DNA of 20,000 bases from an uncultured virus (IMG/VR IMGVR_UViG_3300021139_000004) (taxonomy: Duplodnaviria > Heunggongvirae > Uroviricota > Caudoviricetes): the IMG/VR virus record IMGVR_UViG_3300021139_000004. The stretch is one strand, 5' to 3'. Position 1 is the first letter of the stretch, and the number at the start of each line of letters is the position of its first letter. The position numbers were made by a program, and so were the translations under genes. Shown in pieces: positions 236 through 15,966 of this stretch. The notes beneath the pieces were generated by a model. The model did no database searches. It saw only the letters and a list, made by a program, of their open reading frames with translations, and had not been told where the DNA came from.

Positions 236-241
236 AAGCTC

Positions 242-347
242 GAGATGATGGTAGATACCGTGGACCACTGTTATTAGTGCACGACCTGTCAGGGGCGTGG
301 TTCCGGTCACAATTCTATCTCATTTGCGCCCAATATCTGTGCGGGTG
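242..347 (+). ncRNA. candidate structured RNA between tRNA-Cys and tRNA-Gly
   Basis: Nested helices found by eye: 243-255/314-325, 257-266/299-307, inner hairpins 267-278 and 280-299, and a further hairpin 327-347. No credible ORF. Confidence 0.4.
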
Positions 348-357
348 ATCAATTTTA

Positions 358-432
358 GCGGGTATAGCACAGCGGTAGTGCGTCACGTTGCCAACGTGAA
401 GGTCGTCGGTTCGATCCCGACTACCCGCTCCA
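358..432 (+). tRNA. tRNA-Gly(GCC)
   Basis: GCGGGTA/TACCCGC, U73, CCA; TCACG-TT GCC AA-CGTGA. Confidence 0.97.
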
Positions 433-509
433 GTTCCGATAGCTCAACTGAATAGAGCACTGGTCTACGAAACCAGAGGCTGAAGGTTTGAATCCTTCTC
501 GGAACACCA
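433..509 (+). tRNA. tRNA-Arg(ACG)
   Basis: GTTCCGA/TCGGAAC-A-CCA; CTGGT-CT ACG AA-ACCAG; T loop TTTGAAT. Abuts the previous CCA with no spacer. Confidence 0.92.
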
Positions 510-513
510 ATAT

Positions 514-588
514 TCGGATGTAGCTCAGTGGTAGAGCTTCTGCCTTCCAAGCAGAATGTCGTGGGTTCGACCCCCATCGTCCGCTCCA
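514..588 (+). tRNA. tRNA-Gly(TCC) with a U1:C72 mismatch
   Basis: TCGGATG/CGTCCGC-T-CCA; TCTGC-CT TCC AA-GCAGA. Confidence 0.9.
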
Positions 589-593
589 ATAAT

Positions 594-670
594 GCCCGAG
601 TAGTCCAATTGGCAGAGGCGTCCGCCTTAGAAGCGGAATGTTGGGGGTTCAAATCCCTCCTCGGGCACCA
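594..670 (+). tRNA. tRNA-Leu(TAG) with a short variable loop
   Basis: GCCCGAG/CTCGGGC-A-CCA; TCCGC-CT TAG AA-GCGGA; 77 nt. Confidence 0.92.
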
Positions 671-671
671 T

Positions 672-747
672 GCTACCTTAGTGTAATTGGTAAGCACCCG
701 AGTTTGTGGTACTCGGAGTTCTAGTTCGAATCTAGGAGGTAGTACCA
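672..747 (+). tRNA. tRNA-His(GTG), alphaproteobacterial type
   Basis: GCTACCT/AGGTAGT-A-CCA; CGAGT-TT GTG GT-ACTCG; the base at -1 is T. Confidence 0.93.
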
Positions 748-753
748 AAGTTT

Positions 754-844
754 AGGAAGGCTGCAGAGACGGTGGTTCTGCGACAGACTGTAAATCTGTT
801 CCCTAAGGGTAACACTGGGGGTTCGAATCCCTCCCTTCCTACCA
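754..844 (+). tRNA. tRNA-Tyr(GTA)
   Basis: AGGAAGG/CCTTCCT-A-CCA; ACAGA-CT GTA AA-TCTGT; long variable arm CCC-TAA-GGG. Confidence 0.9.
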
Positions 845-848
845 ATTC

Positions 849-924
849 GCCGATGTAGCTCAGCGGTAGAGCGAATCGCCTCATACGCGACAGGTCGCTG
901 GTTCAAATCCAGCTTTCGGCACCA
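849..924 (+). tRNA. tRNA-CAT (elongator Met or Ile2; not initiator-like)
   Basis: GCCGATG/TTTCGGC-A-CCA; loop CT CAT AC; G1-C72 is paired and the anticodon stem has no GGG/CCC. Confidence 0.88.
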
Positions 925-960
925 TTGATGAACCACAAGACACAAAAATACTGAAAGGGA

Positions 961-1086
961 ATTGGTTACCTGAGTAGAGTATCTGGAAGACTTGTGCCTT
1001 CGGGTTTGATCTAACCAGTCAAGTTCGTACGTCGAAGGGCGCTGTAGTCGAGCAGCAGGCAAGGTGTGGAGAACACCATCGACAAC
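961..1086 (+). ncRNA. candidate structured RNA between tRNA-CAT and tRNA-Pro
   Basis: Long imperfect hairpin closed by ATTGGTTA/TAACCAGT (961-1019), then a possible pseudoknot carrying a GGTGT-GGAGA-ACACC hairpin. Confidence 0.45.
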
Positions 1087-1092
1087 TATTAT

Positions 1093-1169
1093 CGGAGATT
1101 AGCGCAGTCTGGTAGCGCATCTGCTTTGGGAGCAGAGGGTCGCAAGTTCGAATCTTGCATCTCCGACCA
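1093..1169 (+). tRNA. tRNA-Pro(TGG)
   Basis: CGGAGAT/ATCTCCG-A-CCA; TCTGC-TT TGG GA-GCAGA. Confidence 0.97.
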
Positions 1170-1183
1170 TCATAGGAGTATGC

Positions 1184-1300
1184 ATGAAATGGTACGATAA
1201 ATATACTATGATCATCGATAATATCAACAAGTTGATATGGCTATCTTTGATGATTCACTGGATTTTGACTGATATTAAATTAACGGATCTTGTAAAGTAG
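1184..1300 (+). CDS. small hypothetical protein, 38 aa, hydrophobic core
   Basis: AGGAG 5 nt upstream of ATG; MKWYDKYTMIIDNINKLIWLSLMIHWILTDIKLTDLVK*; fills the gap between tRNA-Pro and the next CDS. Confidence 0.6.
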   Translation: MKWYDKYTMIIDNINKLIWLSLMIHWILTDIKLTDLVK

Positions 1301-1303
1301 AAC

Positions 1304-2059
1304 ATGAAAAAAATAGCGCTCTTTATGAATCATCCACAGTGTTCAAGACAATGTTGTAGTGGTATAATAAAGTCGTTATCTTCTAATTACACTTTCAAAA
1401 TCTTCACTAAAGAATCTAATATAATCGAAGTATTAAACAACGCTGATGCTGTCTTTTTTCCGGGCGGCATCGGCGATGCTGATTCTTACGACAAGTTTTT
1501 TCGTAGAAAAGCCGGTAATGCTGTAGCAGACTTTGTTCAAAATGGTGGAAAATATATTGGTGTCTGCATGGGTGCTTATTGGGCAGGTTCTAGATATTTC
1601 GATATCTTACAAGATGTAGATGCAGTACAATATATCAAACGTCCTGATGCAGACATTCGTAGATCTTATGGTACAGTTGCAAACGTAATTTGGCAAAACA
1701 AATGGAAAAAAATGTTTTTCTATGATGGTTGTGCTTTGATTGGTGATCAATCAAAGTTTACGACCTACGCTCGTTATGTCAATGGTGATCCGATGGCTAT
1801 CATTCAAGACAATATCGGTATCATTGGTTGCCATCCTGAAAGTCAAGAGTTCTGGTATGATAAACCATACGAGTATATCAAACAGCATTGGCACAAGGGT
1901 GAACATAATAAACTTTTGTTACGATTTGTAAACGATTTGATGGTGCCTTCGTCTAGCGGTTTAGGACATCGCCCTTTCACGGCGAAGATCACGGGTTCGA
2001 ATCCCGTAGGCACTGCCATAATGGAGAGTGGGCAGGATGGTAATGCAGCGGTTTGCTAA
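1304..2059 (+). CDS. BPL_N-like / class I glutamine amidotransferase-like protein; frame runs through tRNA-Glu into tRNA-Ser
   Basis: Motifs FPGG, GGKYIGVCMGAY (nucleophile elbow) and GCHPE (His-x-Glu). The protein-like part ends near base 1940; the rest is translated tRNA. Confidence 0.8.
   Translation: MKKIALFMNHPQCSRQCCSGIIKSLSSNYTFKIFTKESNIIEVLNNADAVFFPGGIGDADSYDKFFRRKAGNAVADFVQNGGKYIGVCMGAYWAGSRYFDILQDVDAVQYIKRPDADIRRSYGTVANVIWQNKWKKMFFYDGCALIGDQSKFTTYARYVNGDPMAIIQDNIGIIGCHPESQEFWYDKPYEYIKQHWHKGEHNKLLLRFVNDLMVPSSSGLGHRPFTAKITGSNPVGTAIMESGQDGNAAVC
1942..2018 (+). tRNA. tRNA-Glu(TTC)
   Basis: GGTGCCT/AGGCACT-G-CCA; TCGCC-CT TTC AC-GGCGA. Confidence 0.95.
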
Positions 2060-2108
2060 ACCGTACAACCGCAAGGTTGAATTGGTTCGATTCCAATACT
2101 CTCCGCCA
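2023..2108 (+). tRNA. tRNA-Ser(GCT)
   Basis: GGAGAGT/ACTCTCC-G-CCA; loop TT GCT AA; variable arm CAACC-GCAA-GGTTG. Confidence 0.93.
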
Positions 2109-2111
2109 TAT

Positions 2112-2185
2112 ATCGGTGTCGTATAATGGTAGTACAAGGGTCTCCAAAACCTTTAGCGTGGGTTCGATTCCTACCACCGGTGCCA
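2112..2185 (+). tRNA. tRNA-Trp(CCA)
   Basis: ATCGGTG/CACCGGT-G-CCA; AGGGT-CT CCA AA-ACCTT. Confidence 0.95.
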
Positions 2186-2202
2186 ATTTAAATGGGTGTT
2201 GA

Positions 2203-3402
2203 ATGAAAATAGGTATTATTGGTGCAGGAACTGCTAGTGCAGTTTCTCTTATTTCGATGTTACACGTATTTCGTGAAAGACGATTTAACGATTATGAGAT
2301 AGTCTGTATTGCAGATCCTAAAATTCCTATCACACACGTAGGTGAAAGTTTAAGTTCTTTGATCTTGCTTAAGATGATCGATGTATTAGATTTTGATCTC
2401 GTCGATGATCTGATCGAAATTGATGGAACTCTTAGAATTCAAAGTAGAGCTTTTTGGGAACGCGCTAACGGACACGACTTTAAAGTCAAATATGGTTTAC
2501 CGGGTTTACACGTCAATAGTGAAAAGTTCAGCAAGTTTGTAATCGATAGGATATTAAAACTCTATCCTAACGTGTCTATCGTTTATGACAACGTAGAAAA
2601 AATAATTGATACAGATGACGGCGCTACTCTATTTCTCAGTGATAATAAGAGTGTCGATTTTACTTTTGTCATCAATTGTACTGGTACTCCAACCGCAGAA
2701 GAACTCGCTAAAGATTACGAAGTTCCGGAATTCATTTCTGTCAACGCTGCGATCTTATATCCTGACTTCAAAAAGTACGACGAGATGTTTACATCGTCTT
2801 ACGTACACGACAATGGTTGGATGTTTGGTGTACCTCTTCAACACAGAAAAGCTTTTGGTTACTGCTATAACAATAATATAACTTCGAAAGAAGAAGCGAT
2901 CAAAGATTTTTCAGAGATCAAAAACATAGACGCTTCTACATGCAGAAGTTTTGAATGGTCACAATACTATCGTAAAAAAATAATCGAGCGCAGTGTACTT
3001 TATCTTGGAAATAAATTATATTTTCTAGAACCTCAGCAGGGTTTGCCCTTACATTTTTATGGAATGATGATCACTGCATTTACCAATGAATTGTTTATGC
3101 CTAAAGATATAAACACTATTAGAGATGAGTTTAATAGATACTACAGGTTCAACATAGAAAACGTACAAGACTTGATCGCTCTTAATTATTCAGGTGAATG
3201 TAATATCGATTCTAAGTTTTGGAACTATGTAAAAGAACCCGCTAGACAGAGACTGAAAAACTCTGAAGTGTTTCAAAATTGGCTATCTACTTGTGAAAAA
3301 GAAAACAAGCTTATACCCTTTTGGTTCTTTGATGAAAAGATGATTAAAGCTTATATTGAAGGGTATAAGATTGATTTGGGAGAATTAAGATGCAGTTCAT
3401 GA
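2203..3402 (+). CDS. tryptophan halogenase-like flavoprotein
   Basis: N-terminal IGIIGAGTAS dinucleotide motif, PKIPITHVGES, VINCTG, NGWMFGVPLQHR (WxWxIP-like), GNKLYFLEP, DSKFW. Confidence 0.8.
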   Translation: MKIGIIGAGTASAVSLISMLHVFRERRFNDYEIVCIADPKIPITHVGESLSSLILLKMIDVLDFDLVDDLIEIDGTLRIQSRAFWERANGHDFKVKYGLPGLHVNSEKFSKFVIDRILKLYPNVSIVYDNVEKIIDTDDGATLFLSDNKSVDFTFVINCTGTPTAEELAKDYEVPEFISVNAAILYPDFKKYDEMFTSSYVHDNGWMFGVPLQHRKAFGYCYNNNITSKEEAIKDFSEIKNIDASTCRSFEWSQYYRKKIIERSVLYLGNKLYFLEPQQGLPLHFYGMMITAFTNELFMPKDINTIRDEFNRYYRFNIENVQDLIALNYSGECNIDSKFWNYVKEPARQRLKNSEVFQNWLSTCEKENKLIPFWFFDEKMIKAYIEGYKIDLGELRCSS

Positions 3403-3968
3403 ATTTGTGGGCAACACCCGTAGCTTTATTTCAACATCCAGATTATGAATCTATCAATGCAGAGATCATGCAACACGAAGAGCTAAGAGGGTGTAACTTC
3501 TTAGCTAAGAAAGATGTTTGGGATTACGTAGATCAAGTTCCAGCTCTTCGTACTCTGTATGACTGGATGCTAGATTGCACAGCGAAATACGCCGAACAAT
3601 GTTTTGATTTAGAATATGATCCATCATTCTTTATGCACGGTCATGGTTCAATCAACTACAGAGGCAAGGGTAACGAAGCGATGATGCACACACATCGCTT
3701 GACTACAGTCGTCATGACATACTACGTGAGTGTTCATGATAACTGCGGCGACATTCGCCTCTTAGATCCTCGCAGCACACTGGGATGGATAAGTAAGAAT
3801 GTAGCTAAACCCTACAATCAGTATACACACAGTCCTCAAAATGGACAGCTTATCATGTTTCCCGGTTGGGTAATGCACATGGTAGCTCAGAATCAAACTG
3901 ACAAAGAAAGAGTCGCTTTGACTTCCAATGTGTATCTGAAAGAAGAGTTTAAAGATAAGGTGTATTGA
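3390..3968 (+). CDS. putative 2OG-Fe(II) oxygenase (TIGR02466-like)
   Basis: HTH...TYYV...GDIRLLDPR...GQLIMFPGWVMHMV...ERVALTSN. Confidence 0.85.
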   Translation: MQFMNLWATPVALFQHPDYESINAEIMQHEELRGCNFLAKKDVWDYVDQVPALRTLYDWMLDCTAKYAEQCFDLEYDPSFFMHGHGSINYRGKGNEAMMHTHRLTTVVMTYYVSVHDNCGDIRLLDPRSTLGWISKNVAKPYNQYTHSPQNGQLIMFPGWVMHMVAQNQTDKERVALTSNVYLKEEFKDKVY

Positions 3969-3970
3969 TC

Positions 3971-4438
3971 ATGAAAAAGTTTATTGTGTTAGACGATGTA
4001 CTAGACGAAGAAACAAGAATCGCTGTTCGTGATTTTAGTTATGGACCAGCACTACCGCAGAAGTGGTATGATTATGGCGTAAGCCCAATTCATGAAAAGA
4101 TCATCGACGTAGCACGAGATTATTTCGATCTCAGTGATACGATTGGTTATGAGATGTGGTGTAATCAGCGTGCAGTTGGTTGGCACTACGATCATGACGA
4201 AGTAAAGTCAAAAGAAAATAATACGTTCGTGTTTCCTCCTGTAGCTATCGCTTACTATGCTGAAGTAGCTAATCTTGAAGGCGGAGACTTCGTATCAGAA
4301 ACTCATCGCATAACACCGATTACGAATCGTATCATTATGTTTTCACCCGGTCTTTATCACGGCGTGTATCCATATTCAGGTATTCGTAAAGCGATCAGTA
4401 TCAATCCTTGGTCGTACAAGATTGAAAACAAGATTTAG
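3971..4438 (+). CDS. 2OG-Fe(II) oxygenase family protein; the last base of its TAG stop is G1 of tRNA-Gly
   Basis: WHYD (HxD), LEGG, NRIIMFSPGLYHGV, RKAISIN. ATG at 3971 preferred over TTG at 3965. Confidence 0.82.
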   Translation: MKKFIVLDDVLDEETRIAVRDFSYGPALPQKWYDYGVSPIHEKIIDVARDYFDLSDTIGYEMWCNQRAVGWHYDHDEVKSKENNTFVFPPVAIAYYAEVANLEGGDFVSETHRITPITNRIIMFSPGLYHGVYPYSGIRKAISINPWSYKIENKI

Positions 4439-4512
4439 CGGGTATAGCTCAGAGGTAGAGCTTCAGTTTTCCAAACTGACTGTCATCGGTTCGATCCCGA
4501 TTGCCCGCTCCA
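4438..4512 (+). tRNA. tRNA-Gly(TCC), second copy with canonical G1-C72
   Basis: GCGGGTA/TGCCCGC-T-CCA; TCAGT-TT TCC AA-ACTGA. Confidence 0.96.
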
Positions 4513-4523
4513 AAGGATAAATT

Positions 4524-5261
4524 ATGTTCACATTTTTTCATCGTAAAAAGAAAATTGTAGTCGATTGTCTGACTTGTCTTCCGGCAGCGTATGAATATAC
4601 GCCTATCGTTAGAGCATCTAAGACGATCCCGGACTGGTGGAAGAAGTTAGAACACGTAGGTCCTCTTAAAAAAGAAAACGGTGTCTATGACATCGAAAAT
4701 AACATGAAGAACTGTTACGGTTTTGTAGAGCTTTACAAAAGAGGTGCAGTCATTGAAAACTGGTGTGACATCTATCTGAATGTTTCACAAGAAGGTTATG
4801 AATACTACAAGAGTTATGGCATAGCACCCCAGCAGCATCGAAGAGAAGAATACAAGGGTGGATTTGAAAACTATCATCATATAAAGTTGATAAGCCCTTG
4901 GCACTTCAGAGAAAAGACTGGAATGCATTTTCTTTTCATGGGTGCAGAATGGGCAATCGAATATCCAGTAAAAGTTTTACCGGGTGTCGTACAGTATCGA
5001 GATAATTGCGGTACTCATATTAACATGATGTTACCAAAGTATCATGAATCGTATGATTTTACACTCAAATTGGGTCAACCTCTAGCGCATATCATTCCAT
5101 TAAATGATGATGTAAAGGTCGAGTTCAAAAATCATCTTCTTACTGAAGAAGAACTCAAAAAAGAAATGAGATTTGGTGGTCTTTCATTAGATGGTATGAG
5201 AGGCGTTACAGACATCGTAAAACGAAACAACGCACGTAAGTGTCCGTTCGGTTTTGGATAA
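4524..5261 (+). CDS. conserved phage hypothetical protein ending KCPFGFG (possibly DUF6065-like)
   Basis: 245-aa ORF with AAGGA SD; pattern P.WWK...MK.C.G...PW...LPGVV...G.PLAHIIP. The family call is tentative. Confidence 0.7.
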   Translation: MFTFFHRKKKIVVDCLTCLPAAYEYTPIVRASKTIPDWWKKLEHVGPLKKENGVYDIENNMKNCYGFVELYKRGAVIENWCDIYLNVSQEGYEYYKSYGIAPQQHRREEYKGGFENYHHIKLISPWHFREKTGMHFLFMGAEWAIEYPVKVLPGVVQYRDNCGTHINMMLPKYHESYDFTLKLGQPLAHIIPLNDDVKVEFKNHLLTEEELKKEMRFGGLSLDGMRGVTDIVKRNNARKCPFGFG

Positions 5262-5323
5262 ATAGAGCATGATCATTTCGTTATGTTTCTGATGATTGAA
5301 AAATCACCAATTCATAACGGAGT
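5257..5323 (+). promoter_or_regulatory. variant late promoter GATAAATA plus an SD-sequestering leader hairpin
   Basis: GATAAATA at 5257-5264; ATTTCGTTATG (5275-5285) pairs with CATAACGGAGT (5313-5323); inner hairpin TGATT-GAAA-AATCA. Confidence 0.5.
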
Positions 5324-5328
5324 CTCTA

Positions 5329-7158
5329 ATGAAAAGAATTTTAGTAGCCCTACTCGGGCTATGTGCATTCGCGCATGCTGCCGTTGCACAGAACTTACCG
5401 GCCGGTTCTCTAGGTGCGGTAACTAACAATACCCCAAACACATGGCAGACATATAGCTATACGTTTACACCATCATCTTCTGGTGCAAACTATATCGGAT
5501 TTGCATTTCGTCAAGATCCTGCATTCTGGACTTTCGATAACGTAACTTTGACTGCTTCTGGTTCGACTACAAATCTTTTAACGAACGGTGGATTTGATAC
5601 TGGTGGCCAGTTTAGTGTAACGACAAACAACGGTGTCAGTTCGATTCAGGCTCCAACAAACTGGGGTGTATGGTATCAAAACGGAACTTATCCTGCAGCC
5701 GCAGGTACTTGGACTGATATAGGCGGAACTCATGGAGGTGTATGGTATGATGGTGCTGTTGGAACATTTGATGGTATCTATCAGGGTGTGGTTCTACAAG
5801 CAGGAACGACTTACACAATATCTTTTCAAGTTTCTGGGAACAGTACTGCTAATAGTAGTTCTATTCAACTTGGCGTATATGGTGGCGCTTGCGCAACTGT
5901 AAGTATCGCTGCAACACAGTGTACGATTCCTGCAGCTGCTGGATTTACGACGCTTGCAACACCTGCTCAGGGTGCAGCAGCTGGTAATCCTAATCCTACT
6001 CCTACAGTAGTAAGCACAGCGCCCGGACCATCTACAGTTACACAGACGAGTGTAGCAGGAACGACTACTACTTCTGTTTCTAGCACACGCGGTGTATCTA
6101 CAACAGTAGTAGCTATATCAAACGCTGCTGCTAGATCGACAAACAACATCAACGTAACAAGAACTACTGTGACTACAGTTACTACTCCCGTAACGACAGT
6201 CACTACACATACGACTCCTATCGTCGTCTCGACTACAACAGTTCCAACGACAGTGACTACATGGAGTGATAATTCTACGACTACTACTAACGGCACACCA
6301 ATCGTAACTACTAATACGACAAATCAAGTAGTTGCATCTACTTCTGTGACTAACGATGTACAGTCAAGTACTGGTACTCAGTCACAATCAGTAAGTTCAA
6401 GTGGTGCACAAAACGCAGTCAAGTATCGTAACAACAATCCATTCATCGTCGATGTATTGAGTCAAAAAGATGGAACATGGATTAGTCCTACAGCTAGCTA
6501 CTACAAGACAGTAGGAAGTATGGCTGCTGGTGGCGTATCACTCGGTTATCAGTGGACAGTCGAAAACAACTCGTTCGGTGTAGCGTTTGCTTACAACAAC
6601 GCTAAGAGTGGCGGATTAGTCGGTAGCGACGTGCAAGCATCAACGTATGACGGCAACGTCTATGCTTTAAGCAAGCAAGAAGATGTTTGGATCAAGGGCA
6701 CTGTAGGTTACGGCTACGGCGACTACACAACCAACACATCGATTCCGCTGTTCGCTCTCTATAATTCTGGTAAGATCAAACAGAAGACATATTATGCAGA
6801 TCTAACTTTGTATAGTGCTGCAGACTATGCAGGCTTTCGTCCACTCATCGGTGCAACAATCGTAAAATCTCAGATCGATTCTACTTCTGTCGGTACACCA
6901 CTCTTAGATACGACAAGCGGCGTATCATCGAGCACGACTGTAAATCCATATATCGGAGTCAGATATGACTTTACTGACAACGTGGGTATTGAAACAAGAG
7001 TGACACAGACAAAAGATTTCAAGACAGTCGGTGGTATACGAGCAGTTGCCAAGACTGAAATCTATGATGGTGTATTCTTGGATGCTGGAGTCGGATTTGA
7101 TAAGGGCAACGGTTACACAGCAGCTGCTGGTACCATAGGTCTTAAGATCGCTTTTTAG
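5329..7158 (+). CDS. autotransporter-like outer-membrane protein
   Basis: GGAG SD before ATG 5329; signal peptide MKRILVALLGLCAFAHAAVA; beta-rich domain with NLLTNGGFD (carbohydrate-binding-like); Thr/Val stalk; roughly 230-aa amphipathic beta C-terminus ending GLKIAF. Confidence 0.8.
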   Translation: MKRILVALLGLCAFAHAAVAQNLPAGSLGAVTNNTPNTWQTYSYTFTPSSSGANYIGFAFRQDPAFWTFDNVTLTASGSTTNLLTNGGFDTGGQFSVTTNNGVSSIQAPTNWGVWYQNGTYPAAAGTWTDIGGTHGGVWYDGAVGTFDGIYQGVVLQAGTTYTISFQVSGNSTANSSSIQLGVYGGACATVSIAATQCTIPAAAGFTTLATPAQGAAAGNPNPTPTVVSTAPGPSTVTQTSVAGTTTTSVSSTRGVSTTVVAISNAAARSTNNINVTRTTVTTVTTPVTTVTTHTTPIVVSTTTVPTTVTTWSDNSTTTTNGTPIVTTNTTNQVVASTSVTNDVQSSTGTQSQSVSSSGAQNAVKYRNNNPFIVDVLSQKDGTWISPTASYYKTVGSMAAGGVSLGYQWTVENNSFGVAFAYNNAKSGGLVGSDVQASTYDGNVYALSKQEDVWIKGTVGYGYGDYTTNTSIPLFALYNSGKIKQKTYYADLTLYSAADYAGFRPLIGATIVKSQIDSTSVGTPLLDTTSGVSSSTTVNPYIGVRYDFTDNVGIETRVTQTKDFKTVGGIRAVAKTEIYDGVFLDAGVGFDKGNGYTAAAGTIGLKIAF

Positions 7159-7206
7159 TGTACAAACTCTCTCCATCGTGGTATAATCTTTACATGATGG
7201 AGAGAG
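7158..7206 (+). promoter_or_regulatory. T4-type early promoter inside a stem-loop
   Basis: TGTACA (7159-7164)-17 nt-TATAAT (7182-7187); 14-bp stem 7167-7180/7193-7206. Confidence 0.75.
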
Positions 7207-7208
7207 AA

Positions 7209-7436
7209 ATGCAAGTTATTCAGTTTCCCCTACAACAGCGTAACGCTACTATCGTCAACGGTGTGGCTACTCAGAATCCGCATAATCGTGCCAAGTATCT
7301 CAATCTGATCGAACGATTCTTGCTTCCTGATGACTATCAGGAAATCTTGAACGCTATCGAACATCCATTACTCTATGCTGCTTTGGAGCCTCAACTCCAG
7401 AGGATCTTAGACTATTACCTCAGTTACGATCAGTGA
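7209..7436 (+). CDS. hypothetical protein
   Basis: GGAGAGAG SD then MQVIQFPLQQRN...; start moved from the track's GTG, which lies in the promoter. Confidence 0.7.
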   Translation: MQVIQFPLQQRNATIVNGVATQNPHNRAKYLNLIERFLLPDDYQEILNAIEHPLLYAALEPQLQRILDYYLSYDQ

Positions 7437-7439
7437 TCG

Positions 7440-7447
7440 TATAAATA
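7440..7447 (+). promoter_or_regulatory. T4 late promoter
   Basis: Exact TATAAATA, intergenic, 24 nt before the ArfA-like ATG. Confidence 0.75.
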
Positions 7448-7471
7448 ATCTTACTTTAACAAAGGTGCGCT

Positions 7472-7600
7472 ATGACTAAGCAGGTTACAATTCGTAATCC
7501 AATCGCTAAGGCTCTTCAGAGCCAGTCTTTCCGCGCGCGTATCGTTGCCCCTAAACGTGGCAAGGGTTCATACAAACGTCAGAGCTTCAAAAAGTTCTGA
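7472..7600 (+). CDS. arfA: ArfA-like alternative ribosome rescue factor, 42 aa
   Basis: MTKQVTIRNPIAKALQSQSFRARIVAPKRGKGSYKRQSFKKF*, with an AAGGT SD. Matches the ArfA pattern N.I...L....FR.R....K.GKGSY.R. Confidence 0.75.
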   Translation: MTKQVTIRNPIAKALQSQSFRARIVAPKRGKGSYKRQSFKKF

Positions 7601-7607
7601 GGTTATT

Positions 7608-7684
7608 GGATCCTTAGCTCAGTAGGTTAGAGCAGCGGTCTTTTAAACCGCAGGTCCTGGGTTCGAATCCCAGAGGATCTACCA
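7608..7684 (+). tRNA. tRNA-Lys(TTT)
   Basis: GGATCCT/AGGATCT-A-CCA; GCGGT-CT TTT AA-ACCGC. Confidence 0.97.
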
Positions 7685-7706
7685 ACTATTTTGTAGGATT
7701 TTTATT

Positions 7707-7802
7707 ATGAATTTACGTGAATTACTATGGGTGATTGTTATGTGTAATTCCATAGCTATCGCGGCGTCAGTGATCGTCGTGAGTTGGAATTTTTGGAAGT
7801 GA
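7707..7802 (+). CDS. single-TM microprotein, 31 aa
   Basis: AGGA SD; MNLRELLWVIVMCNSIAIAASVIVVSWNFWK*. Confidence 0.5.
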   Translation: MNLRELLWVIVMCNSIAIAASVIVVSWNFWK

Positions 7803-7830
7803 ATATCGTTAACAACTAAGGAGCAATAAA

Positions 7831-8388
7831 ATGCAAAAGACTATCGTATCGGCGCTCGCTCTTCTTGCGTCGACAGCAGTGGCTTCGGCTACTGATCTGC
7901 CAAGCAAGACGAAAGCACCTGCTGCACCAGTCGCTGCACAGTCTTCAACAGACTTCTATGCTGGCGTTAATGCAGGCGGTGACTTCGATAAAGCACGCGT
8001 CTATTCTGGTGGTGCTGTTGCTGGCTGGAACGTCCTTCCGTTCCTCGCAGTAGAAGGTACATACGACCTTGATCGTCCAAGCGACAAGATTAAGGGTGCT
8101 TCAAACTGGCAGAACACTGTCGGCGTGAACGCTGTACCACAGTACAAGATTCCCGGTCAAGACGTTACCGTGTATGCACTCGGTGGTGTTGGTTACCGTT
8201 GGAATAGTGTAGCTACCGTTGCGGATCATTCCGTTTATAACTTCGGTGCTGGCGCTAAGTATGAGTTCGCTAAGAATCTCGAACTCGACGGTCGTTATCG
8301 TCGCATCGACGCTATCGAAAGCAAGTATCGCACGACTGCAAATCCTGCAGAAGACCGTGCAACACTTGGTGTAAACTACAAGTTCTAA
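7831..8388 (+). CDS. outer-membrane beta-barrel protein, RopB/Omp25-like
   Basis: TAAGGAG SD; signal peptide then ATDLPSKTKAPAAPVA; FYAGVNAGG; GAGAKYEF; C-terminal GVNYKF. Confidence 0.85.
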   Translation: MQKTIVSALALLASTAVASATDLPSKTKAPAAPVAAQSSTDFYAGVNAGGDFDKARVYSGGAVAGWNVLPFLAVEGTYDLDRPSDKIKGASNWQNTVGVNAVPQYKIPGQDVTVYALGGVGYRWNSVATVADHSVYNFGAGAKYEFAKNLELDGRYRRIDAIESKYRTTANPAEDRATLGVNYKF

Positions 8389-8813
8389 TGATGTACGAGG
8401 TTAGAAACGCTGTAAGCGATGACCTCAATGACATTATAAGAATAGAACAAACGTTTGGCGCAGAGGCATTCTCAAAGAGAACTCTGCGCCAACAACTAAA
8501 AAATACAATCGTCTTAAAAGACGAAGAAGTTCTCGGATACTGTATCTTCTTCAAATTCAAACACTCAGCAAGAATATACAGCATCGCTGTCGATGAAAAT
8601 CATCGACGCAAGGGTCTTGGTAAGATACTTCTCAAAGAAGTCGAGAATCGTTGCCAAGAAATGGACATTGCCAAGCTTACGCTTGAAGTTGCCATCGATA
8701 ACATAGCAGCACAACACGTGTATTCTCTTATGGGATATACCAAGATCAAAGATCTATCAGACTACTATGATCTTGGTAGACACGCTATCAAATTATCCAA
8801 GAATCTAAAATAA
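8388..8813 (+). CDS. GNAT acetyltransferase, RimI-like
   Basis: IYSIAVDENHRRKGLGKILL, LTLEVAIDNIAAQHVYSLMGY, DYY..G.HA. Confidence 0.88.
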   Translation: MMYEVRNAVSDDLNDIIRIEQTFGAEAFSKRTLRQQLKNTIVLKDEEVLGYCIFFKFKHSARIYSIAVDENHRRKGLGKILLKEVENRCQEMDIAKLTLEVAIDNIAAQHVYSLMGYTKIKDLSDYYDLGRHAIKLSKNLK

Positions 8814-8815
8814 CT

Positions 8816-8844
8816 GTTTACTTTTCTAGCCATCTTGATATAAT
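8816..8844 (+). promoter_or_regulatory. T4-type early promoter
   Basis: GTTTACT, 16 nt, then TATAAT (8839-8844) preceded by TGA. Confidence 0.7.
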
Positions 8845-8873
8845 AGTCATATTGGTTGAGAGGAGTCTTTGTA

Positions 8874-9098
8874 ATGTGGACAGACGATGACATCATCGAA
8901 TATGAAGCTGCTTTGACTACGCAGGAACGTTTGACTCTAGATGCTATGAAGCAGTTCAAAGATTTTGAACGAGTTAAAAACTACGTAGCACGGATGACAC
9001 ATGGTAACTATGATCCACACTACGTGGCTTCGATCTACTACAATCCAGACGCTTACTTCGATGCGTCTGACTTGGAGATATATAATGAACACATTTAA
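8874..9098 (+). CDS. hypothetical protein
   Basis: GAGGAG SD, then MWTDDDIIEY... Confidence 0.7.
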   Translation: MWTDDDIIEYEAALTTQERLTLDAMKQFKDFERVKNYVARMTHGNYDPHYVASIYYNPDAYFDASDLEIYNEHI

Positions 9099-9414
9099 TC
9101 TAGCACTGACAAAAAACTTTACAAAGTTGACACTCATTACGATTGCATCTTTGTCTAGCACTCTCGGTCTTCGAACTGAGATGGCTATCATCTTTGGCGA
9201 TATCGGTCTAGCAACGTGGCTTGCTATTGGCTGGGTATTTGTCATCATCATCGTCTTGGCTTACTACAAGTCAAAGCAAGACGTCGAGTTGATCTCTTTT
9301 CGTGAATATGAAAAAAATCGTGTATTGGCTGGTTTCAAGCCCGTTTCGTCGTATACATATACAGGCGGTGTCACAGCGCTTAATCAGGCTGATGACAATA
9401 TCAGGGAGAAATGA
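9085..9414 (+). CDS. hypothetical membrane protein
   Basis: GGAG SD before ATG 9085; hydrophobic segment IGLATWLAIGWVFVIIIVLAYY. Confidence 0.65.
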   Translation: MNTFNLALTKNFTKLTLITIASLSSTLGLRTEMAIIFGDIGLATWLAIGWVFVIIIVLAYYKSKQDVELISFREYEKNRVLAGFKPVSSYTYTGGVTALNQADDNIREK

Positions 9415-9415
9415 G

Positions 9416-9604
9416 ATGAACCGATTCGTTGTTAAGTATGACATCAAACATCTTTCTCAAAAGACTCCTCTTCATGGAGTCTTGACACCCGAAACGTGTA
9501 AGTTCGTGACTCTACAAGACGCTATCAAGTTCGTTCGTATTATGCGTGGTCGTCGCACATCGAAATATGAAGTTGTAGGAATGCCTGTTATCGAAAGGAT
9601 CTAA
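9416..9604 (+). CDS. small basic hypothetical protein
   Basis: GGGAG SD; MNRFVVKYDIKH...MPVIERI. Confidence 0.65.
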   Translation: MNRFVVKYDIKHLSQKTPLHGVLTPETCKFVTLQDAIKFVRIMRGRRTSKYEVVGMPVIERI

Positions 9605-9605
9605 C

Positions 9606-9869
9606 ATGCGTAAGTTACTAGTAATCGCTTCACTGTTGGCTATGACGACAGTAGCATCAGCAGAAGATTGGCGTCATGATAGACACCATCCAGCTCCACG
9701 CGTGGTGCATCGTGGTCATGGTGGTTGGGTTGGTCCAGCATTTTTGCTTGGTCTTGGTGCTGCTGCAGCAGTAGGAACAATCTTCTACTATGAAGGTCAT
9801 CGTTGCTGGAACGAATTAGTCGGTTACGACGAATGGGGTAATAGGTTAGTTCGTCGAGTCTGTGAATAA
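9606..9869 (+). CDS. small secreted His/Arg/Gly-rich protein with a Cys pair
   Basis: Signal peptide ending ASA; RHDRHH tract; GLGAAAAVG; C-terminal CW...RRVCE. Confidence 0.75.
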   Translation: MRKLLVIASLLAMTTVASAEDWRHDRHHPAPRVVHRGHGGWVGPAFLLGLGAAAAVGTIFYYEGHRCWNELVGYDEWGNRLVRRVCE

Positions 9870-9922
9870 CAAAAGGATCTATATCATGCCGATCTTCGTT
9901 CATTCTATTACACATTGGAAAA

Positions 9923-10498
9923 GTGATGAAAGTTAAAATTGGACCATACGTAAACTGGTTTGGAACTTATCAGATCGCGGATAAGATTTTCTTCTGGATC
10001 GATGATAGAAAAAGCATCGACTACGATGAGTTTTATAATCGTTGGGATGTGAAGCTGCGTGATTCATTTACTAATTGGTTATCTAAAACTTGGGTCCATG
10101 ACTTTTGTGTTTGGCTTTATAAATTCCAAAAGCGTAAGGTCGAAGTTCGCCTCGATCCATACGATACTTGGTCTCTCGATCATACGTTAGCGCTGATCAT
10201 TCATCCTGCTCTAATCCAGCTCAGAGATACCAATCATGGTTATGGAATGATAGATCCAGAAGATTGTCCATCGATCGGTAAAGGTAATGAAACTGACTAT
10301 GGTACTGACGATGATAAAGCATTAGATCGTTGGAATTGGTTCATGGACGAGATCATTTGGGCATTCGGTGAAATTGCAAATGACAATCCAAACGAGCCAA
10401 AGTTTAATAGTGACGGTGATGAAATGATAGCATATCATAACAGAATTCAAAATGCTATGGTTCTGTTTGGAAAATACTATCGAGCACTGTGGGATTAA
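9923..10498 (+). CDS. conserved phage hypothetical protein
   Basis: 191-aa Trp-rich ORF; DPYDTWSLDHTLALIIHP...LFGKYYRALWD. Confidence 0.75.
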   Translation: MMKVKIGPYVNWFGTYQIADKIFFWIDDRKSIDYDEFYNRWDVKLRDSFTNWLSKTWVHDFCVWLYKFQKRKVEVRLDPYDTWSLDHTLALIIHPALIQLRDTNHGYGMIDPEDCPSIGKGNETDYGTDDDKALDRWNWFMDEIIWAFGEIANDNPNEPKFNSDGDEMIAYHNRIQNAMVLFGKYYRALWD

Positions 10499-10509
10499 AG
10501 TAGTGTGTT

Positions 10510-10860
10510 ATGAATGTCGAAACTAAATACGACATTGGTCATAAGTTCTGGGTGCCACGAGTGCATAAAACATTCGTGACAACAGAAACTCTTTGCCATG
10601 AAGGCGAAGAATGGCATCGTGATGTTTATGAAATGAAAGCTTTTGCTAAACAAAAAATCGTAAAGAGTATCGATATTGCTATACACGAAAATGGTAAATA
10701 TAGAATTCAATACGGCGTAGCTAACTGTGAAGATAATAAGCCAGACTTACTTCAATGGTATCCTGAAGCAAACATGACGGATCACACTGAAGAATCAGCT
10801 CTTATTTTCGCAGAGAGTTTTCTCTCCGATAATCCAACTAAAGAGTATTTTGGTAACTAA
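10510..10860 (+). CDS. hypothetical protein
   Basis: 116-aa ORF starting METKYDIG-like (MNVETKYDIGHKFW). Confidence 0.7.
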   Translation: MNVETKYDIGHKFWVPRVHKTFVTTETLCHEGEEWHRDVYEMKAFAKQKIVKSIDIAIHENGKYRIQYGVANCEDNKPDLLQWYPEANMTDHTEESALIFAESFLSDNPTKEYFGN

Positions 10861-10864
10861 TTAT

Positions 10865-10940
10865 TCGGGGATAGTTCAATTGGTAGAACAGCGGACTTTG
10901 AATCCGTTGGTTGGAGGTTCGAGCCCTTCTCCCCGAACCA
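10865..10940 (+). tRNA. tRNA-Gln(TTG)
   Basis: TCGGGGA/TCCCCGA-A-CCA; GCGGA-CT TTG AA-TCCGT. Confidence 0.95.
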
Positions 10941-11231
10941 TTATTCTTTCTTACTCTCTACAGTCTTTTTAGCATTATCTAAGAATGAATAGATCGAGTT
11001 GATATTCTTCTGACACACAGTATTATTTGTATGCATCTGAACTAGTAGCTTTGACACTTGTACGTCTGTCAAAGTATCTGGATTCGGAAAATGTCTTACG
11101 TTTGGACAATAGAACAAAGACTTATCTGGCATGATAACGACTTGATCTGTCTTAGTAAGAACTTGAGGCGGTAACGATTTAGCGCAGCCTGCTAGAGTGA
11201 GAGCTGCTAAAGAAGCAATAACTAATTTCAT
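10941..11231 (-). CDS. o-spanin (Rz1-like lipoprotein)
   Basis: Lipobox LAGC, Pro-rich, two further Cys; 4-nt overlap with the upstream TM/coiled-coil gene. Confidence 0.75.
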   Translation of the reverse strand: MKLVIASLAALTLAGCAKSLPPQVLTKTDQVVIMPDKSLFYCPNVRHFPNPDTLTDVQVSKLLVQMHTNNTVCQKNINSIYSFLDNAKKTVESKKE

Positions 11232-11575
11232 TTTGGTGCATCCTTTAATCTGTTCACTGTCTTTTTCAAGACATCTGAAGCTGCACGATCAGACTTTTGT
11301 GTATCTGTTGAATTAAGATAATCGTCAGCTGCTTTCATCTTAGTATCAAAAGCTTCTCTTTCTGCTTTATTCTTTGCTAAGATCTCGTCTTGAGAAGCTT
11401 GGATGGCATCCATCTTAGCTTTGAACTCTTGCTGATCTTTGATAGCCTGTTCGATTTGTTTTTGATTATATTCTAACAGAGCTTCGCGTTCGATACTTGA
11501 ACGCCAACCGATATAACCTGCGGTGAGAGCTCCAAAGAAAAGCACACCACCTATGACTATAAGATAAAAACGCAT
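11228..11575 (-). CDS. i-spanin (Rz-like)
   Basis: GGAGG SD before the ATG at 11575; N-terminal TM helix, then a coiled coil. Confidence 0.75.
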   Translation of the reverse strand: MRFYLIVIGGVLFFGALTAGYIGWRSSIEREALLEYNQKQIEQAIKDQQEFKAKMDAIQASQDEILAKNKAEREAFDTKMKAADDYLNSTDTQKSDRAASDVLKKTVNRLKDAPK

Positions 11576-11887: not shown

Positions 11888-11947
11888 TATGAGATGCCAT
11901 TCGGGTCTCATATTATAACCTAACTCGCTTAACAGGAGATAGCAATG
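11888..11947 (+). promoter_or_regulatory. ROSE-like RNA thermometer
   Basis: Hairpin TATGAGA...TCTCATA, then CTC(G)CT-TAAC-AGGAG, which pairs the SD with a bulged G. Confidence 0.7.
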
Positions 11948-12451
11948 ACAAATTGGCCTACATATAAGTTCGACCACACGTTTACAGATCTTGCAAAATT
12001 TGATAAGTTCTTTGTTGGTGCAGACAAGTTCTTTGAACGTGCTAGACAGACAGCTGAACTTGTAGCAAATACCGCACAAGTTGCATATCCACCCTTCAAT
12101 CTAAAGAAGACTGACGATAACGTCTATGTTATTGAGATGGCTGTCGCAGGTTTTGCTAAGCAAGACATCGAACTGACTCTTGAAGATAATAAGCTCAAGA
12201 TTGCAGGTAAAGTAGAAAACGACGAAAATGAGAATACTGATTTCTTGTATAAGGGTATCTCTGCTCGTCCGTTCGAACGATCATTCGTATTGAACGATAA
12301 CGTTGTGATCAACAATGCTCAGTATGTAAACGGTCTACTTAAGATCTGGTTAGAGCATATTATTCCTGAAGATAAAAAGCCAAAGAAGATCGACATCGCC
12401 GATGGTGATGCACCAGCTTCTAAGTCTAAGAAGCAACTTCTTACAGAATAA
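11945..12451 (+). CDS. hsp20: small heat-shock protein, Hsp20/IbpA family
   Basis: YPPFN, IEMAVAGF, FLYKGISARPFERSF, NGLLKIWL, PEDKKPKKIDI. Confidence 0.95.
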   Translation: MTNWPTYKFDHTFTDLAKFDKFFVGADKFFERARQTAELVANTAQVAYPPFNLKKTDDNVYVIEMAVAGFAKQDIELTLEDNKLKIAGKVENDENENTDFLYKGISARPFERSFVLNDNVVINNAQYVNGLLKIWLEHIIPEDKKPKKIDIADGDAPASKSKKQLLTE

Positions 12452-12481
12452 TCCCCGCTAATTGGATGCGTCCATTAGCCC

Positions 12482-12501
12482 CTCCCGGCTCCGGCCGGGA
12501 G
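12482..12501 (+). terminator. GC-rich hairpin (terminator or stabiliser; weak U tract)
   Basis: CTCCCGGC-TCCG-GCCGGGAG, a UNCG-type loop. Confidence 0.55.
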
Positions 12502-12524
12502 ACTTCTATCAAGGAATAAAAAAA

Positions 12525-12716
12525 ATGACACAACTAATATCAGCTTTCAGCTCATGGCTGAAGGACACATCACGTTATTACAATACAATATACGAACTAT
12601 CAAGACTTACAGATCGTGAATTACAAGACATAGGATTGAGTCGTGGTGACATCATCAACGTAGCGAATCAACAACTGACAAGAACGATTATAAATAACAT
12701 GTGTGACGCTAACTGA
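12525..12716 (+). CDS. DUF1127 family small protein
   Basis: AAGGA SD; ELSRLTDRELQDIGLSRGDI signature. Confidence 0.88.
   Translation: MTQLISAFSSWLKDTSRYYNTIYELSRLTDRELQDIGLSRGDIINVANQQLTRTIINNMCDAN
12689..12696 (+). promoter_or_regulatory. T4 late promoter for the endolysin
   Basis: TATAAATA about 30 nt upstream of ATG 12728. Confidence 0.7.
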
Positions 12717-13419: not shown

Positions 13420-15966
13420 ATGCGTTTCTACACGAATGTCTATCTACGCGGAAATAAGATCTATACTCGTGGTTACCAAAACGGTAAGCGCTTTAAAGAA
13501 GAAGATCACTATCAGCCATACATCTTTGAATTCGTAGCCGGCCAGAGTTCTAAGTATAAGACTCTGAATGGTAGGGATGTCAAGCGCACAAACTTTCGTA
13601 GTATCAAAGATTGTCGCGACTACATCAAACAGATGGAGGGTGTAAAGGGTAAAGAACTATTTGGTCTTACACACTTTCAATATACGTACATCAACGATGA
13701 ATTTTCTGGTGATATAGAATACGATCCTTCACATATATCTGTAGTCAGCATCGATATCGAAACACCGACTGATCAGGGTTTTCCTGATCCTCAAGTCGCG
13801 AACGTTCCTATCAGCAATATCACGATTAGTAAGAACGGTAAGATCGTCGTTTTTGGTTGTGAGTACTATAAGACAAAAGCTGACAACGTCTATTACTTCA
13901 TGTGTAAAGACGAAGCTGAGATGCTTCAAAAGTTTCTTATGGTCTGGAACGATGATGACTGGTCACCCGACGTGTTGACTGGTTGGAACATCGACGGCTT
14001 CGACGTACCTTATCTGTACAATCGTATCAGCAAAGTTCTAAGCGAGAACGAGGCTCGTAAGCTGTCGCCTTGGCGTATGGTCGACGAGCGTGAGATCGTT
14101 CGTGGCAAGACTGGTGGTCAGAGCCTAAGCGATCGCACTGATAAGATCTATGAATTGGTTGGTATCTCTACTCTCGATTACATGCATCTGTATAAGAAGT
14201 TCTCGTTCACCAATCAAGAGAGCTATAAGCTAGATCATATCGCAAACGTGGTTCTTGGTGAGAACAAGTTGGACTATTCGGAGTTCAGTTCGCTCTATGA
14301 GTTCTATCAGAAAGACTATGAACGTTTCGTAGATTACAACATTCATGATACTGTTCTTGTCGAACGCCTAGAAGATAAGCTCGGTCTTATCAAGCAGGTA
14401 TTTGCTCTTGCTTACGATGCTAAAGTTAACTATAACGACGTTATGACGACTACTAAACCGTGGGATGTCATCATTCATAATTACTTGATGAATCAGAATA
14501 TCGTCGTTCCTTTCTTCAAACCGAGTCGAGAAGACTTTGATCTAGTCGGTGGCTATGTCAAAGAAGTTCAGACTGGTATGCATAAGTGGGTGGTGTCTTT
14601 TGACTTGAACTCACTCTATCCACATCTTATCATGCAGTACAACATCAGTCCTGAGACGTTCGTTGCTAGAACGACTGAAGGATTTCCGAGCATTGACGGA
14701 CTATTGACCGGCAAATATGACTTCAGCGCCCGGCATATTTCGCCCGATGATGGATTTTGCTGGGCGGCGAACGGATGCGCTTATAGAAAAGGAAAGCAGG
14801 GTTTCTTGCCAGCATTGATGGAAAAGATGTATGATGACCGTGTCATCTATAAAGAGATGATGCTCGAAGCTAAGAAGAGATACGAGAAGACGAAGTCTAA
14901 AGAAGACGAAAAGCTAATCGCTCGCTATCATAATCTTCAGCTAGCCAAAAAGATCCAGCTGAACTCAGCTTATGGCGCTCTTGGTAATCGATACTTCCGT
15001 TGGTTCTCTTTCGACAACGCTGAAGCCATCACTAAGTCTGGTCAGCTTTCGATTCGTTGGATCGAACGTAAGATGAACGAGTACATGAACAAGATCTGTA
15101 AGACTAATGGTGTAGATTACGTCGTAGCTTCCGATACAGATTCTATCTACGTAACGTTCAAGAATCTCATTCCAGATAACTGCGACGAAGTCGAAGCAGT
15201 CAAATTGATCGATAAGTTCTGTGAGACTAAGATCCAGTCTTATATCAATTCTTGTTATGATCAGCTCGCTGGCATGATGAATGCTTATCAGCAGAAGATG
15301 CAGATGAAGCGAGAGACTATTGCTAATAAGGGTATCTGGAAAGAAAAGAAGATGTATATCCTCAATGCTTGGAACATCGAGGGTGTGCAGTTTGATAAGC
15401 CTAAGTTGAAGATCTCGGGCATCGAAGCAGTTCGATCTTCTACTCCAAAGAAGTGTCGTGAAGCTATTAAGAATGCACTCGAAGTCTTGATGAATAAGAC
15501 TGAAACAGAGTTTCAAAAGTATATCGCTGACTTCAAAGTTCAGTTCATGGAGATGCCCTTCGAAGAAGTAGCGTTTCCTCGAGGCGTCAAGTTGTTTGGT
15601 TACAAGAGTGCAGCTAATGGTGGTGTATATAAGTTCGAGTACAAGCTCGATCAGAAATCATTGCCTATTCAGGTTCGCGGTGCTCTTCGATACAATGATA
15701 TGATCAAACGCATGGGACTCGAGAAGAAATACGATCTGATCAAAGAGGGCGATAAGATCAAGTTCGCTTATCTTATCACACCCAATCCAATAAGAGACAA
15801 TGTCATCGCAGCTCCTGAAATACTTCCAAAAGAGTTCAAGCTTGATACATACATAGATCGTAGTCTACAGTTCGAAAAGACTTTCTTAGATCCGCTCAAA
15901 GCTATCACTGAAGTCATTGGATGGAAAGTAGAAAAGACTGCGTCTCTTGAAAGTTACTTTTACTAA
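13420..15966 (+). CDS. 43: family B DNA polymerase, T4 gp43-like
   Basis: Exonuclease motifs DIET, GWNIDGFD, YNIHD; polymerase motifs SFDLNSLYP, KIQLNSAYG, DTDS; C-terminal clamp-binding SLESYF. Confidence 0.98.
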   Translation: MRFYTNVYLRGNKIYTRGYQNGKRFKEEDHYQPYIFEFVAGQSSKYKTLNGRDVKRTNFRSIKDCRDYIKQMEGVKGKELFGLTHFQYTYINDEFSGDIEYDPSHISVVSIDIETPTDQGFPDPQVANVPISNITISKNGKIVVFGCEYYKTKADNVYYFMCKDEAEMLQKFLMVWNDDDWSPDVLTGWNIDGFDVPYLYNRISKVLSENEARKLSPWRMVDEREIVRGKTGGQSLSDRTDKIYELVGISTLDYMHLYKKFSFTNQESYKLDHIANVVLGENKLDYSEFSSLYEFYQKDYERFVDYNIHDTVLVERLEDKLGLIKQVFALAYDAKVNYNDVMTTTKPWDVIIHNYLMNQNIVVPFFKPSREDFDLVGGYVKEVQTGMHKWVVSFDLNSLYPHLIMQYNISPETFVARTTEGFPSIDGLLTGKYDFSARHISPDDGFCWAANGCAYRKGKQGFLPALMEKMYDDRVIYKEMMLEAKKRYEKTKSKEDEKLIARYHNLQLAKKIQLNSAYGALGNRYFRWFSFDNAEAITKSGQLSIRWIERKMNEYMNKICKTNGVDYVVASDTDSIYVTFKNLIPDNCDEVEAVKLIDKFCETKIQSYINSCYDQLAGMMNAYQQKMQMKRETIANKGIWKEKKMYILNAWNIEGVQFDKPKLKISGIEAVRSSTPKKCREAIKNALEVLMNKTETEFQKYIADFKVQFMEMPFEEVAFPRGVKLFGYKSAANGGVYKFEYKLDQKSLPIQVRGALRYNDMIKRMGLEKKYDLIKEGDKIKFAYLITPNPIRDNVIAAPEILPKEFKLDTYIDRSLQFEKTFLDPLKAITEVIGWKVEKTASLESYFY

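Follow-up and report, generated by a model that had tools for sequence, protein, structure and literature searches.

Does a phage gene that encodes a short ArfA-like protein and ends in its own stop codon provide a ribosome rescue factor, or does it serve a different purpose? To our knowledge, descriptions of ArfA restrict the factor to Gammaproteobacteria, some Betaproteobacteria and a few Bacillus, and its synthesis to non-stop messages. The locus that raises the question lies in a 20,000-nt stretch of DNA from an uncultured virus (IMG/VR record IMGVR_UViG_3300021139_000004), which is referred to as the window (Table 1). The window belongs to a T4-like phage from freshwater, whose record comprises 34,232 bases and has a completeness of about 20% according to CheckV. 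The DNA and RNA runs holding the stretch are labelled freshwater or lake. RegA, a sliding clamp and a clamp loader are encoded in the 14 kb upstream of the window, and the record contains 26 tRNA genes, of which 15 are located in the window (161-10940) and 11 just upstream (L193 12697-13978). Both tRNA-Lys(UUU) and tRNA-Lys(CUU) belong to this set. A megablast search of positions 6000-10000 against phage records gave no matches. The alphaproteobacterial host that had been assumed in a first-pass annotation of this DNA was not borne out: the best matches of the DNA polymerase are cyanomyoviruses (48%), and the look-alikes of the outer-membrane proteins are a mixture of Pseudomonadota and Campylobacterota, which narrow the host down no further.

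Table 1. Features of the mini-arfA locus and other genes of the window
Feature	Position	Strand	Remarks
Candidate T4-type late promoter, exact octamer TATAAATA	7440-7447	+	24 nt before the ATG
Shine-Dalgarno sequence AGGTG	7463-7467	+	4 nt before the ATG
mini-arfA ORF	7472..7600	+	42 aa, MTKQVTIRNPIAKALQSQSFRARIVAPKRGKGSYKRQSFKKF; ATG at 7472, TGA stop at 7598-7600
RNA hairpin spanning the final 7 codons plus the stop	7575..7604	+	Core stem 7579-7587/7592-7600; outer pairs 7575-7577/7602-7604
tRNA-Lys (anticodon UUU)	7608..7684	+	ARAGORN; Rfam tRNA, 75 bits; 7 nt after the stop
Hsp20	11945-12451		In the window
DUF1127 protein	12462-12716		In the window
Family-B DNA polymerase	13420-15966		In the window
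UvsX recombinase, gp41-type helicase			Window-encoded
Endolysin, GNAT acetyltransferase, two outer-membrane beta-barrel-like proteins			Window-encoded

A mini-arfA gene with its own stop codon

The mini-arfA ORF is a real gene of the ArfA family with its own stop codon. The elements by which the locus had originally been recognised, namely the frame of 42 codons with its FRAR and KRGKGSYKR segments, the Shine-Dalgarno sequence and the TATAAATA octamer, are all in place, and the UGA indeed follows soon after GKGSY, eight codons past the motif. Across 7472-7600, no overlapping ORF of at least 25 aa was found on the opposite strand. It could be argued that the ORF arose by chance in the leader of a tRNA-Lys transcript and is not a gene, for the reading frame is very short and synonymous changes are not in excess in the codon counts (between the window and its relative L009, 29 codons are identical, 3 differ synonymously and 10 non-synonymously). 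This explanation is extremely improbable and was rejected because the Pfam match exceeds the cut-off, the frame, the length and the position of the stop are retained in relatives that are 86%, 76%, 74% and 52% identical, the Shine-Dalgarno sequence is conserved (GGAGGTG in L009 and AAGGAG in L028), and 938 related cluster representatives were found by a profile search. Moreover, the ORF is conserved while the upstream intergenic DNA of the relatives that were compared diverges. A public protein collection contains the identical protein with a precomputed PF03889 assignment, and the 86% identical relative carries the JGI name ArfA. A word-based protein search returned the protein itself and one relative only.

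The assignment to the ArfA family is supported by profile searches and by comparisons with PDB chain sequences. The Pfam ArfA model PF03889, which had been suggested as a check of the initial proposal, matches the window protein with 30.7 bits (E 2.1e-7) and thus above its curated gathering cut-off of 25.5 bits; residues 12-38 are placed on positions 15-41 of the 44 profile positions. All of the 18 aligned relatives are matched as well (E 0.01 or better). When the single protein was compared with PDB chains, residues 8-37 aligned without gaps to residues 13-42 of E. coli ArfA (E 0.026-0.076). A profile of nine phage relatives retrieved six E. coli ArfA chains with E values from 5e-9 to 1.4e-8, the best match having 39 bits at E 5e-9 and the first non-ArfA match following at E 0.91. 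Thus, the proposed ArfA-like identity has been confirmed. The NCBIfam search gave no matching models, and in PHROGs no more than two weak matches were obtained, both to families without a known function (E about 2e-3).

The window protein and E. coli ArfA (YhdL) share an FRxR[VI] segment, KGKGSY and a basic tail. The ungapped alignment places the window protein at E. coli positions of about 6-47, the C-terminal F42 corresponding to position 47. According to a review on ribosome rescue, ribosome-bound ArfA is ordered over 46-48 residues, and ArfA is inactive when cut to 40 residues and fully active without its last 17-18 residues (PMC8012679). With F42 at position 47, the basic tail of the window protein extends beyond these 40 residues. 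The same review describes that the ArfA residues Q27-E30 pair with RF2 (PMC8012679). The equivalent segment of the window protein is A22-V25 in FRARIV, which is followed by KRGKGSY at 28-34. FRARIV (FRQRVE in E. coli) and KGKGSY are the best-conserved parts, and G30, G32, S33 and R36 are invariant among 18 sequences.

Two positions deviate from E. coli ArfA. Lys13 aligns with A18 and is not a small residue, although a shift by one residue is possible in this less conserved part; an A18T exchange in ArfA is described to abolish RF2 activation (PMC8012679). Furthermore, Phe39-Lys40 are found at the residues equivalent to a Lys-His pair, which is common to ArfA and BrfA and binds a pocket of the mRNA channel, its importance being untested according to the review (PMC8012679). 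Many relatives have kept the pair at the same spacing, for instance those of CRP-212, XM05 and L016. The genes differ in their layout, too. E. coli arfA encodes 72 residues and its message is cut by RNase III inside the ORF, whereas the window gene encodes 42 residues, ends in its own UGA and lacks the hydrophobic C-terminal extension of E. coli ArfA. Unlike E. coli arfA, the window gene is carried by a phage and adjoins a tRNA gene. BrfA from Bacillus subtilis and SmpB's C-terminal tail likewise sense the empty mRNA channel with a basic tail, and BrfA, too, is described to recruit RF2 by strand addition (PMC8012679). BrfA is produced from a non-stop message, and no sequence relation was found between the window protein and either BrfA or the SmpB tail.

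Distribution of the short form in phages and SAR11

By tblastn, weak relatives were detected in eight phage records that represent seven distinct phages, and every one of these ORFs is short. Six of the phages infect Alphaproteobacteria (Caulobacter phage Cr30, Roseobacter phage CRP-212, Erythrobacter phage XM05, Citromicrobium phage RXM and the Pelagibacter phages HTVC034P and HTVC027P), and a Microcystis phage makes up the seventh. When IMG/VR was scanned with a pattern, 392 matches were obtained; 174 of these proved to be relatives, and 80 were retained. These loci comprise 33 distinct 3' ends, among them that of the window, with a stop no more than 15 residues from the motif. A profile built from 16 relatives was searched against 1.84 billion cluster representatives and matched 938 of them with an E value of 0.001 or lower, 88 of which reach 1e-10 or lower. 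Among the best 150 of the 938 representatives, the motif is present in 144, and the stop follows within 15 residues in 81 and at a greater distance in 63. The 52 loci from a metagenome pattern scan mostly contain the motif in unrelated frames; the useful ones are L199 and L211, whose protein is the same as that of L028, and L240. The 'pre-truncation' that had been noted for the gene is thus not peculiar to this phage and represents the usual condition in a large subfamily of phage and SAR11 proteins.

Phage ArfA genes have already been annotated in print, in 2022 and 2025. In what the respective papers state about g10 of Citromicrobium phage vB_CbaS-RXM (PMC8953757) and gp30 of Pelagibacter phage HTVC027P (PMC12753301), both proteins owe the name ArfA solely to the Pfam domain. 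The window protein is a member of their family, with tblastn identities of 48% and 41%, respectively. Unlike the window protein, g10 comprises 60 aa and ends in a partly hydrophobic tail of 28 residues, and gp30 has a long N-terminal extension and a 3' end without a hairpin. In the literature that we searched on phage ArfA, SAR11 ArfA and ribosome rescue, we found no functional study of short-form ArfA and no description of the SAR11 chromosomal gene, the stop-codon hairpin or the tRNA-Lys linkage.

Several phage relatives show a different architecture. In L040, L052, L059, L066, L076 (1992-2168) and L003 (1986-2168), a 28-residue hydrophobic tail is present in the canonical arfA layout, and these relatives may be made from non-stop messages. 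In L015, L017, L021, L037-L039, L043, L045 and L046 (about 1881-2429), an ArfA-like N-terminus is joined to a C-terminal domain that comprises about 100 residues and contains the motifs GNYTKP and GQWSARKAQ; the fused proteins have 136-142 aa and originate from uncultured phages. Caulobacter phage Cr30 carries an unannotated ArfA-like ORF of 50 codons (L002 2447-2599, record 11139-11291) between a hypothetical gene and a cluster with two RNA ligase genes and a GMP reductase gene. In Roseobacter phage CRP-212, an ArfA-like ORF of 41 codons (L004 1492-1617) lies inside the 3' part of the gp38 CDS in another frame; either the overlap with gp38 is genuine or gp38 has been annotated too long.

The short form is also encoded by cellular genomes. 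In the part of a published nhmmer survey that concerns arfA, the gene is listed for none of 2,376 Alphaproteobacteria genomes (PMC11633108). Our scan of one genome per species gave 279 confirmed relatives, the best 80 of which all belong to the Pelagibacterales (SAR11). An own-stop ORF of 34-50 aa (median 39) is present in 79 of these 80 loci, and therefore the Alphaproteobacteria are not all free of ArfA. Among the best 80, the stop lies at most 10 residues past the motif in 76 loci and 11-15 residues past it in 3. A PfkB-type kinase gene is found alongside in 78 of the 80 loci and in all 64 full-length loci, and an endonuclease III gene is also nearby in 74. Because of these conserved neighbours, SAR11 mini-ArfA is the product of a syntenic chromosomal gene and not of a prophage gene. 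The SAR11 proteins are 43-63% identical to the window protein, with their own stop 4-15 residues after GKGS[YF]. They differ from it by a shorter and more Lys-rich tail, and the cellular gene is not next to a tRNA gene.

The Pfam ArfA cut-off was passed in all three SAR11 genomes tested. In these three genomes (G001-G003), two RF-1-domain genes each were detected, both of RF1/RF2 size; as only these two are present per genome, no ArfB was found, and mini-ArfA may be the sole back-up rescue factor in these genomes. The prfB match of G002 contains one in-frame TAG, which is followed by a 326-aa frame. An even sample of 401 Alphaproteobacteria genomes contained 10 with a match at an E value of 0.001 or lower and 8 with a score above the cut-off, and the family is therefore rare in this class outside SAR11. 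Thus, the earlier view that ArfA is not an alphaproteobacterial factor applies to the greater part of the class and fails for the Pelagibacterales with their chromosomal mini-ArfA.

The stop-codon hairpin, the tRNA-Lys gene and expression

The hairpin predicted over the 3' end of mini-arfA has a folding energy of -14.7 kcal/mol (z -6.4), which was equalled by none of 200 shuffles. Hairpins were also found at the matching place in L009, whose protein is 76% identical (-12.9 kcal/mol, z -5.9), in L187 with 74% identity (-7.3 kcal/mol), in L028/L029 with 52% identity (-11.3 kcal/mol, z -3.7) and in L240 and Erythrobacter phage XM05. The stem sequences of L028/L029 are unrelated to that of the window. 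Between the stems of the window and L009, one G-C pair is replaced by A-U and one G-U pair by C-G, and the residues encoded by the changed pairs differ as well (S to A and F to V). In a covariation analysis of three sequences, 26 of 27 cells are paired and two pairs are changed on both sides, a result that is not significant because 110 of 500 shuffles reach the observed score. No such hairpin is present in 29 of the 33 distinct mini-ArfA 3' ends (z -0.7 to +1.4) or in the SAR11 mini-ArfA genes seen. Of the 43-nt stretches in front of five other tRNA genes in the window, none folds better than shuffled sequences (z +1.0 to -1.8). The hairpin is not followed by a T run, and no terminator-like site was found in 6900-8000.

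Over 7000-8000, Rfam detects nothing above threshold except the tRNA. A tRNA-Lys(UUU) gene begins 7-8 nt past the stop in four lineages, represented by the window, L009, L187 and L028/L029, which differ from one another in their tRNA sequences and upstream neighbours. In L240, an intrinsic terminator takes the place of the tRNA-Lys gene, and no tRNA genes were found in the 20 other loci scanned, a set without RXM and HTVC027P. The new observations at this locus are thus the stop-codon hairpin, which recurs with different stems in six lineages, and the linkage to tRNA-Lys(UUU) in four of them. By the latter, phage tRNAs are connected with ribosome rescue in a way that can be tested.

The octamer TATAAATA occurs four times in the window, while 1.13 copies are expected, and at least four copies were reached in 5 of 200 shuffles. 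Over 34,033 bases of the record, five of six copies are located 9-34 nt upstream of the start of a codirectional ORF, including the endolysin gene. The proposed placement of mini-arfA under a late promoter is in line with this pattern, as the exact octamer before mini-arfA sits like the copy before the endolysin gene. The exact TATAAATA is not conserved in L009 and L187, where ACTAAATA stands in its place. A lake metatranscriptome contains one contig of 218 nt that is identical to 7432-7649 without any difference and includes the ORF and the hairpin as well as the tRNA's first half. The contig would fit co-transcription of mini-arfA and the tRNA, but only as a weak hint, since libraries of this kind may also contain DNA. 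Only assembled contigs were considered, in which transcript ends are invisible and gaps in the cover of 6900-8400 are uninformative. For pelagiphage HTVC027P, high expression of the ArfA-domain relative gp30 is reported 3 h and 12-15 h after infection (PMC12753301).

Possible functions of mini-ArfA and its neighbours

We consider it somewhat probable that the window gene encodes a stop-codon-terminated rescue factor that recruits RF2 and is expressed together with the phage tRNAs. Ribosome binding, the use of RF2, the timing of expression and independence from tmRNA are inferred. On a ribosome that has stalled where a broken message ends, the basic C-terminus would enter the empty mRNA channel and the FRARIV segment would add a strand to the host RF2, and RF2 would then release the peptide. 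Because the gene has its own UGA and lacks the hydrophobic extension, synthesis of the factor can proceed through ordinary termination, together with that of the phage tRNAs. Mini-ArfA would presumably escape from the tmRNA feedback and could keep ribosomes available while messages are cut in the course of infection. The short form in SAR11 genomes in which no ArfB was found fits a working rescue factor of this size. Points against such a factor are Lys13 at the A18 position, where Thr blocks RF2 activation, Phe39-Lys40 in place of the channel-binding Lys-His pair, the lack of a matching NCBIfam model and codon counts in which synonymous changes are not in excess. A complex prediction for the window protein and the 326-residue SAR11 RF2 frame (score 0.13, mark 0.32) counts neither way.

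The two deviating positions would also suit a peptide that fills the empty mRNA channel without activating RF2, by which SmpB-tmRNA could be blocked, phage proteins could be spared from tagging or host ribosomes could be modulated in another way. The channel positions of ArfA and SmpB are indeed described to overlap (PMC8012679). Such a blocking role appears unlikely to us, as it is precisely the RF2-pairing segment and KGKGSY that are best conserved, and the syntenic short form in SAR11 without a detected ArfB fits a rescue factor better than an inhibitor. It is still less probable that the product is a small basic peptide that binds nucleic acids, for instance in the handling of tRNA or other RNA, and resembles ArfA only by a shared basic motif. 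This would agree with the short, Lys/Arg-rich protein, with the location of the gene among tRNA genes and with the neighbourhood of the Cr30 relative, where two RNA ligase genes are found. However, 30 positions align without gaps, non-basic residues (N, I, L, F, V, G, G, S, Y) are among them, and the only significant PDB matches of the profile are ArfA chains.

A different question is whether a compact form of the arfA feedback has been kept in the window. If the hairpin were cut, or if RNase P cleaved at the 5' end of the tRNA-Lys and subsequent trimming removed the stop, much of the message would end without a stop or a few bases from it, and tmRNA would still limit the protein. This scenario could explain why a hairpin with such a z value recurs with different stems in L009, L187, L028, L240 and XM05, why none was found upstream of the five other tRNA genes of the window and why tRNA-Lys begins so close to the stop in four lineages. 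Nevertheless, we assign it a low probability. The stem has no more than 9-12 pairs in the window, the stems of L028 and L240 have 6-7, and such lengths are short for RNase III. Moreover, the hairpin has no T run behind it, no terminator-like site is found nearby, and the covariation on three sequences is not significant. One contig from an RNA library crosses the hairpin into the tRNA, and the absence of the hairpin from most 3' ends and from SAR11 implies that the family works without it. The precedent for the feedback is E. coli arfA itself, whose internal stem-loop is reported to be both an RNase III site and a premature terminator (PMC3989581).

The rescue function that we favour could also be part of a larger arrangement, in which mini-arfA, the hairpin and tRNA-Lys(UUU) form a co-transcribed cassette against RNA-cutting defences of the host. 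Where anticodon nucleases have destroyed the tRNA-Lys of the host, that of the phage would take its place, and ribosomes stuck on cut messages would be released by the rescue factor. Through cleavage by RNase P at the tRNA, the arfA message would obtain its 3' end 7 nt past the hairpin-buried stop, and the output could still respond to how busy tmRNA is. For the PARIS system, it is reported that AriB cleaves host lysine tRNA and that phage T5 answers with its own tRNA-Lys (PMC11464382). We regard the cassette as a whole as doubtful.

The subfamily to which the window protein belongs appears to break two rules that have been associated with ArfA, because its short proteins end at a stop codon of their own and because it is present in many phages and fixed in the SAR11 chromosome. 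If these proteins depend on RF2, ribosome rescue would be a function that phages commonly bring along, SAR11, which is among the most abundant bacteria, would use an overlooked back-up rescue factor, and the minimal active ArfA would have a size of about 35-42 residues.

The surroundings of mini-arfA contain further genes. Directly after the tRNA-Lys gene, there is a hydrophobic ORF of 31 codons (7707-7802), whose start (ATGAATTT.CGTGA) is also kept in L009. Upstream, a 620-aa ORF (5296-7158) combines a signal-peptide-like N-terminus, a long Thr/Ser/Val-rich middle part and a beta-barrel-like C-terminus; no Pfam or PHROG matches were obtained for it. A tryptophan-halogenase-like gene and three 2OG-Fe(II) oxygenase genes are located at 2203-3968 and 16214-16789 in the window and at 8823-9455 in L193. 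The region 7831-8388 encodes a phage outer-membrane beta-barrel protein of 185 aa (PF13505/OmpA_membrane) with a signal-peptide-like start, and parts of this gene are covered by contigs from four lake RNA libraries.
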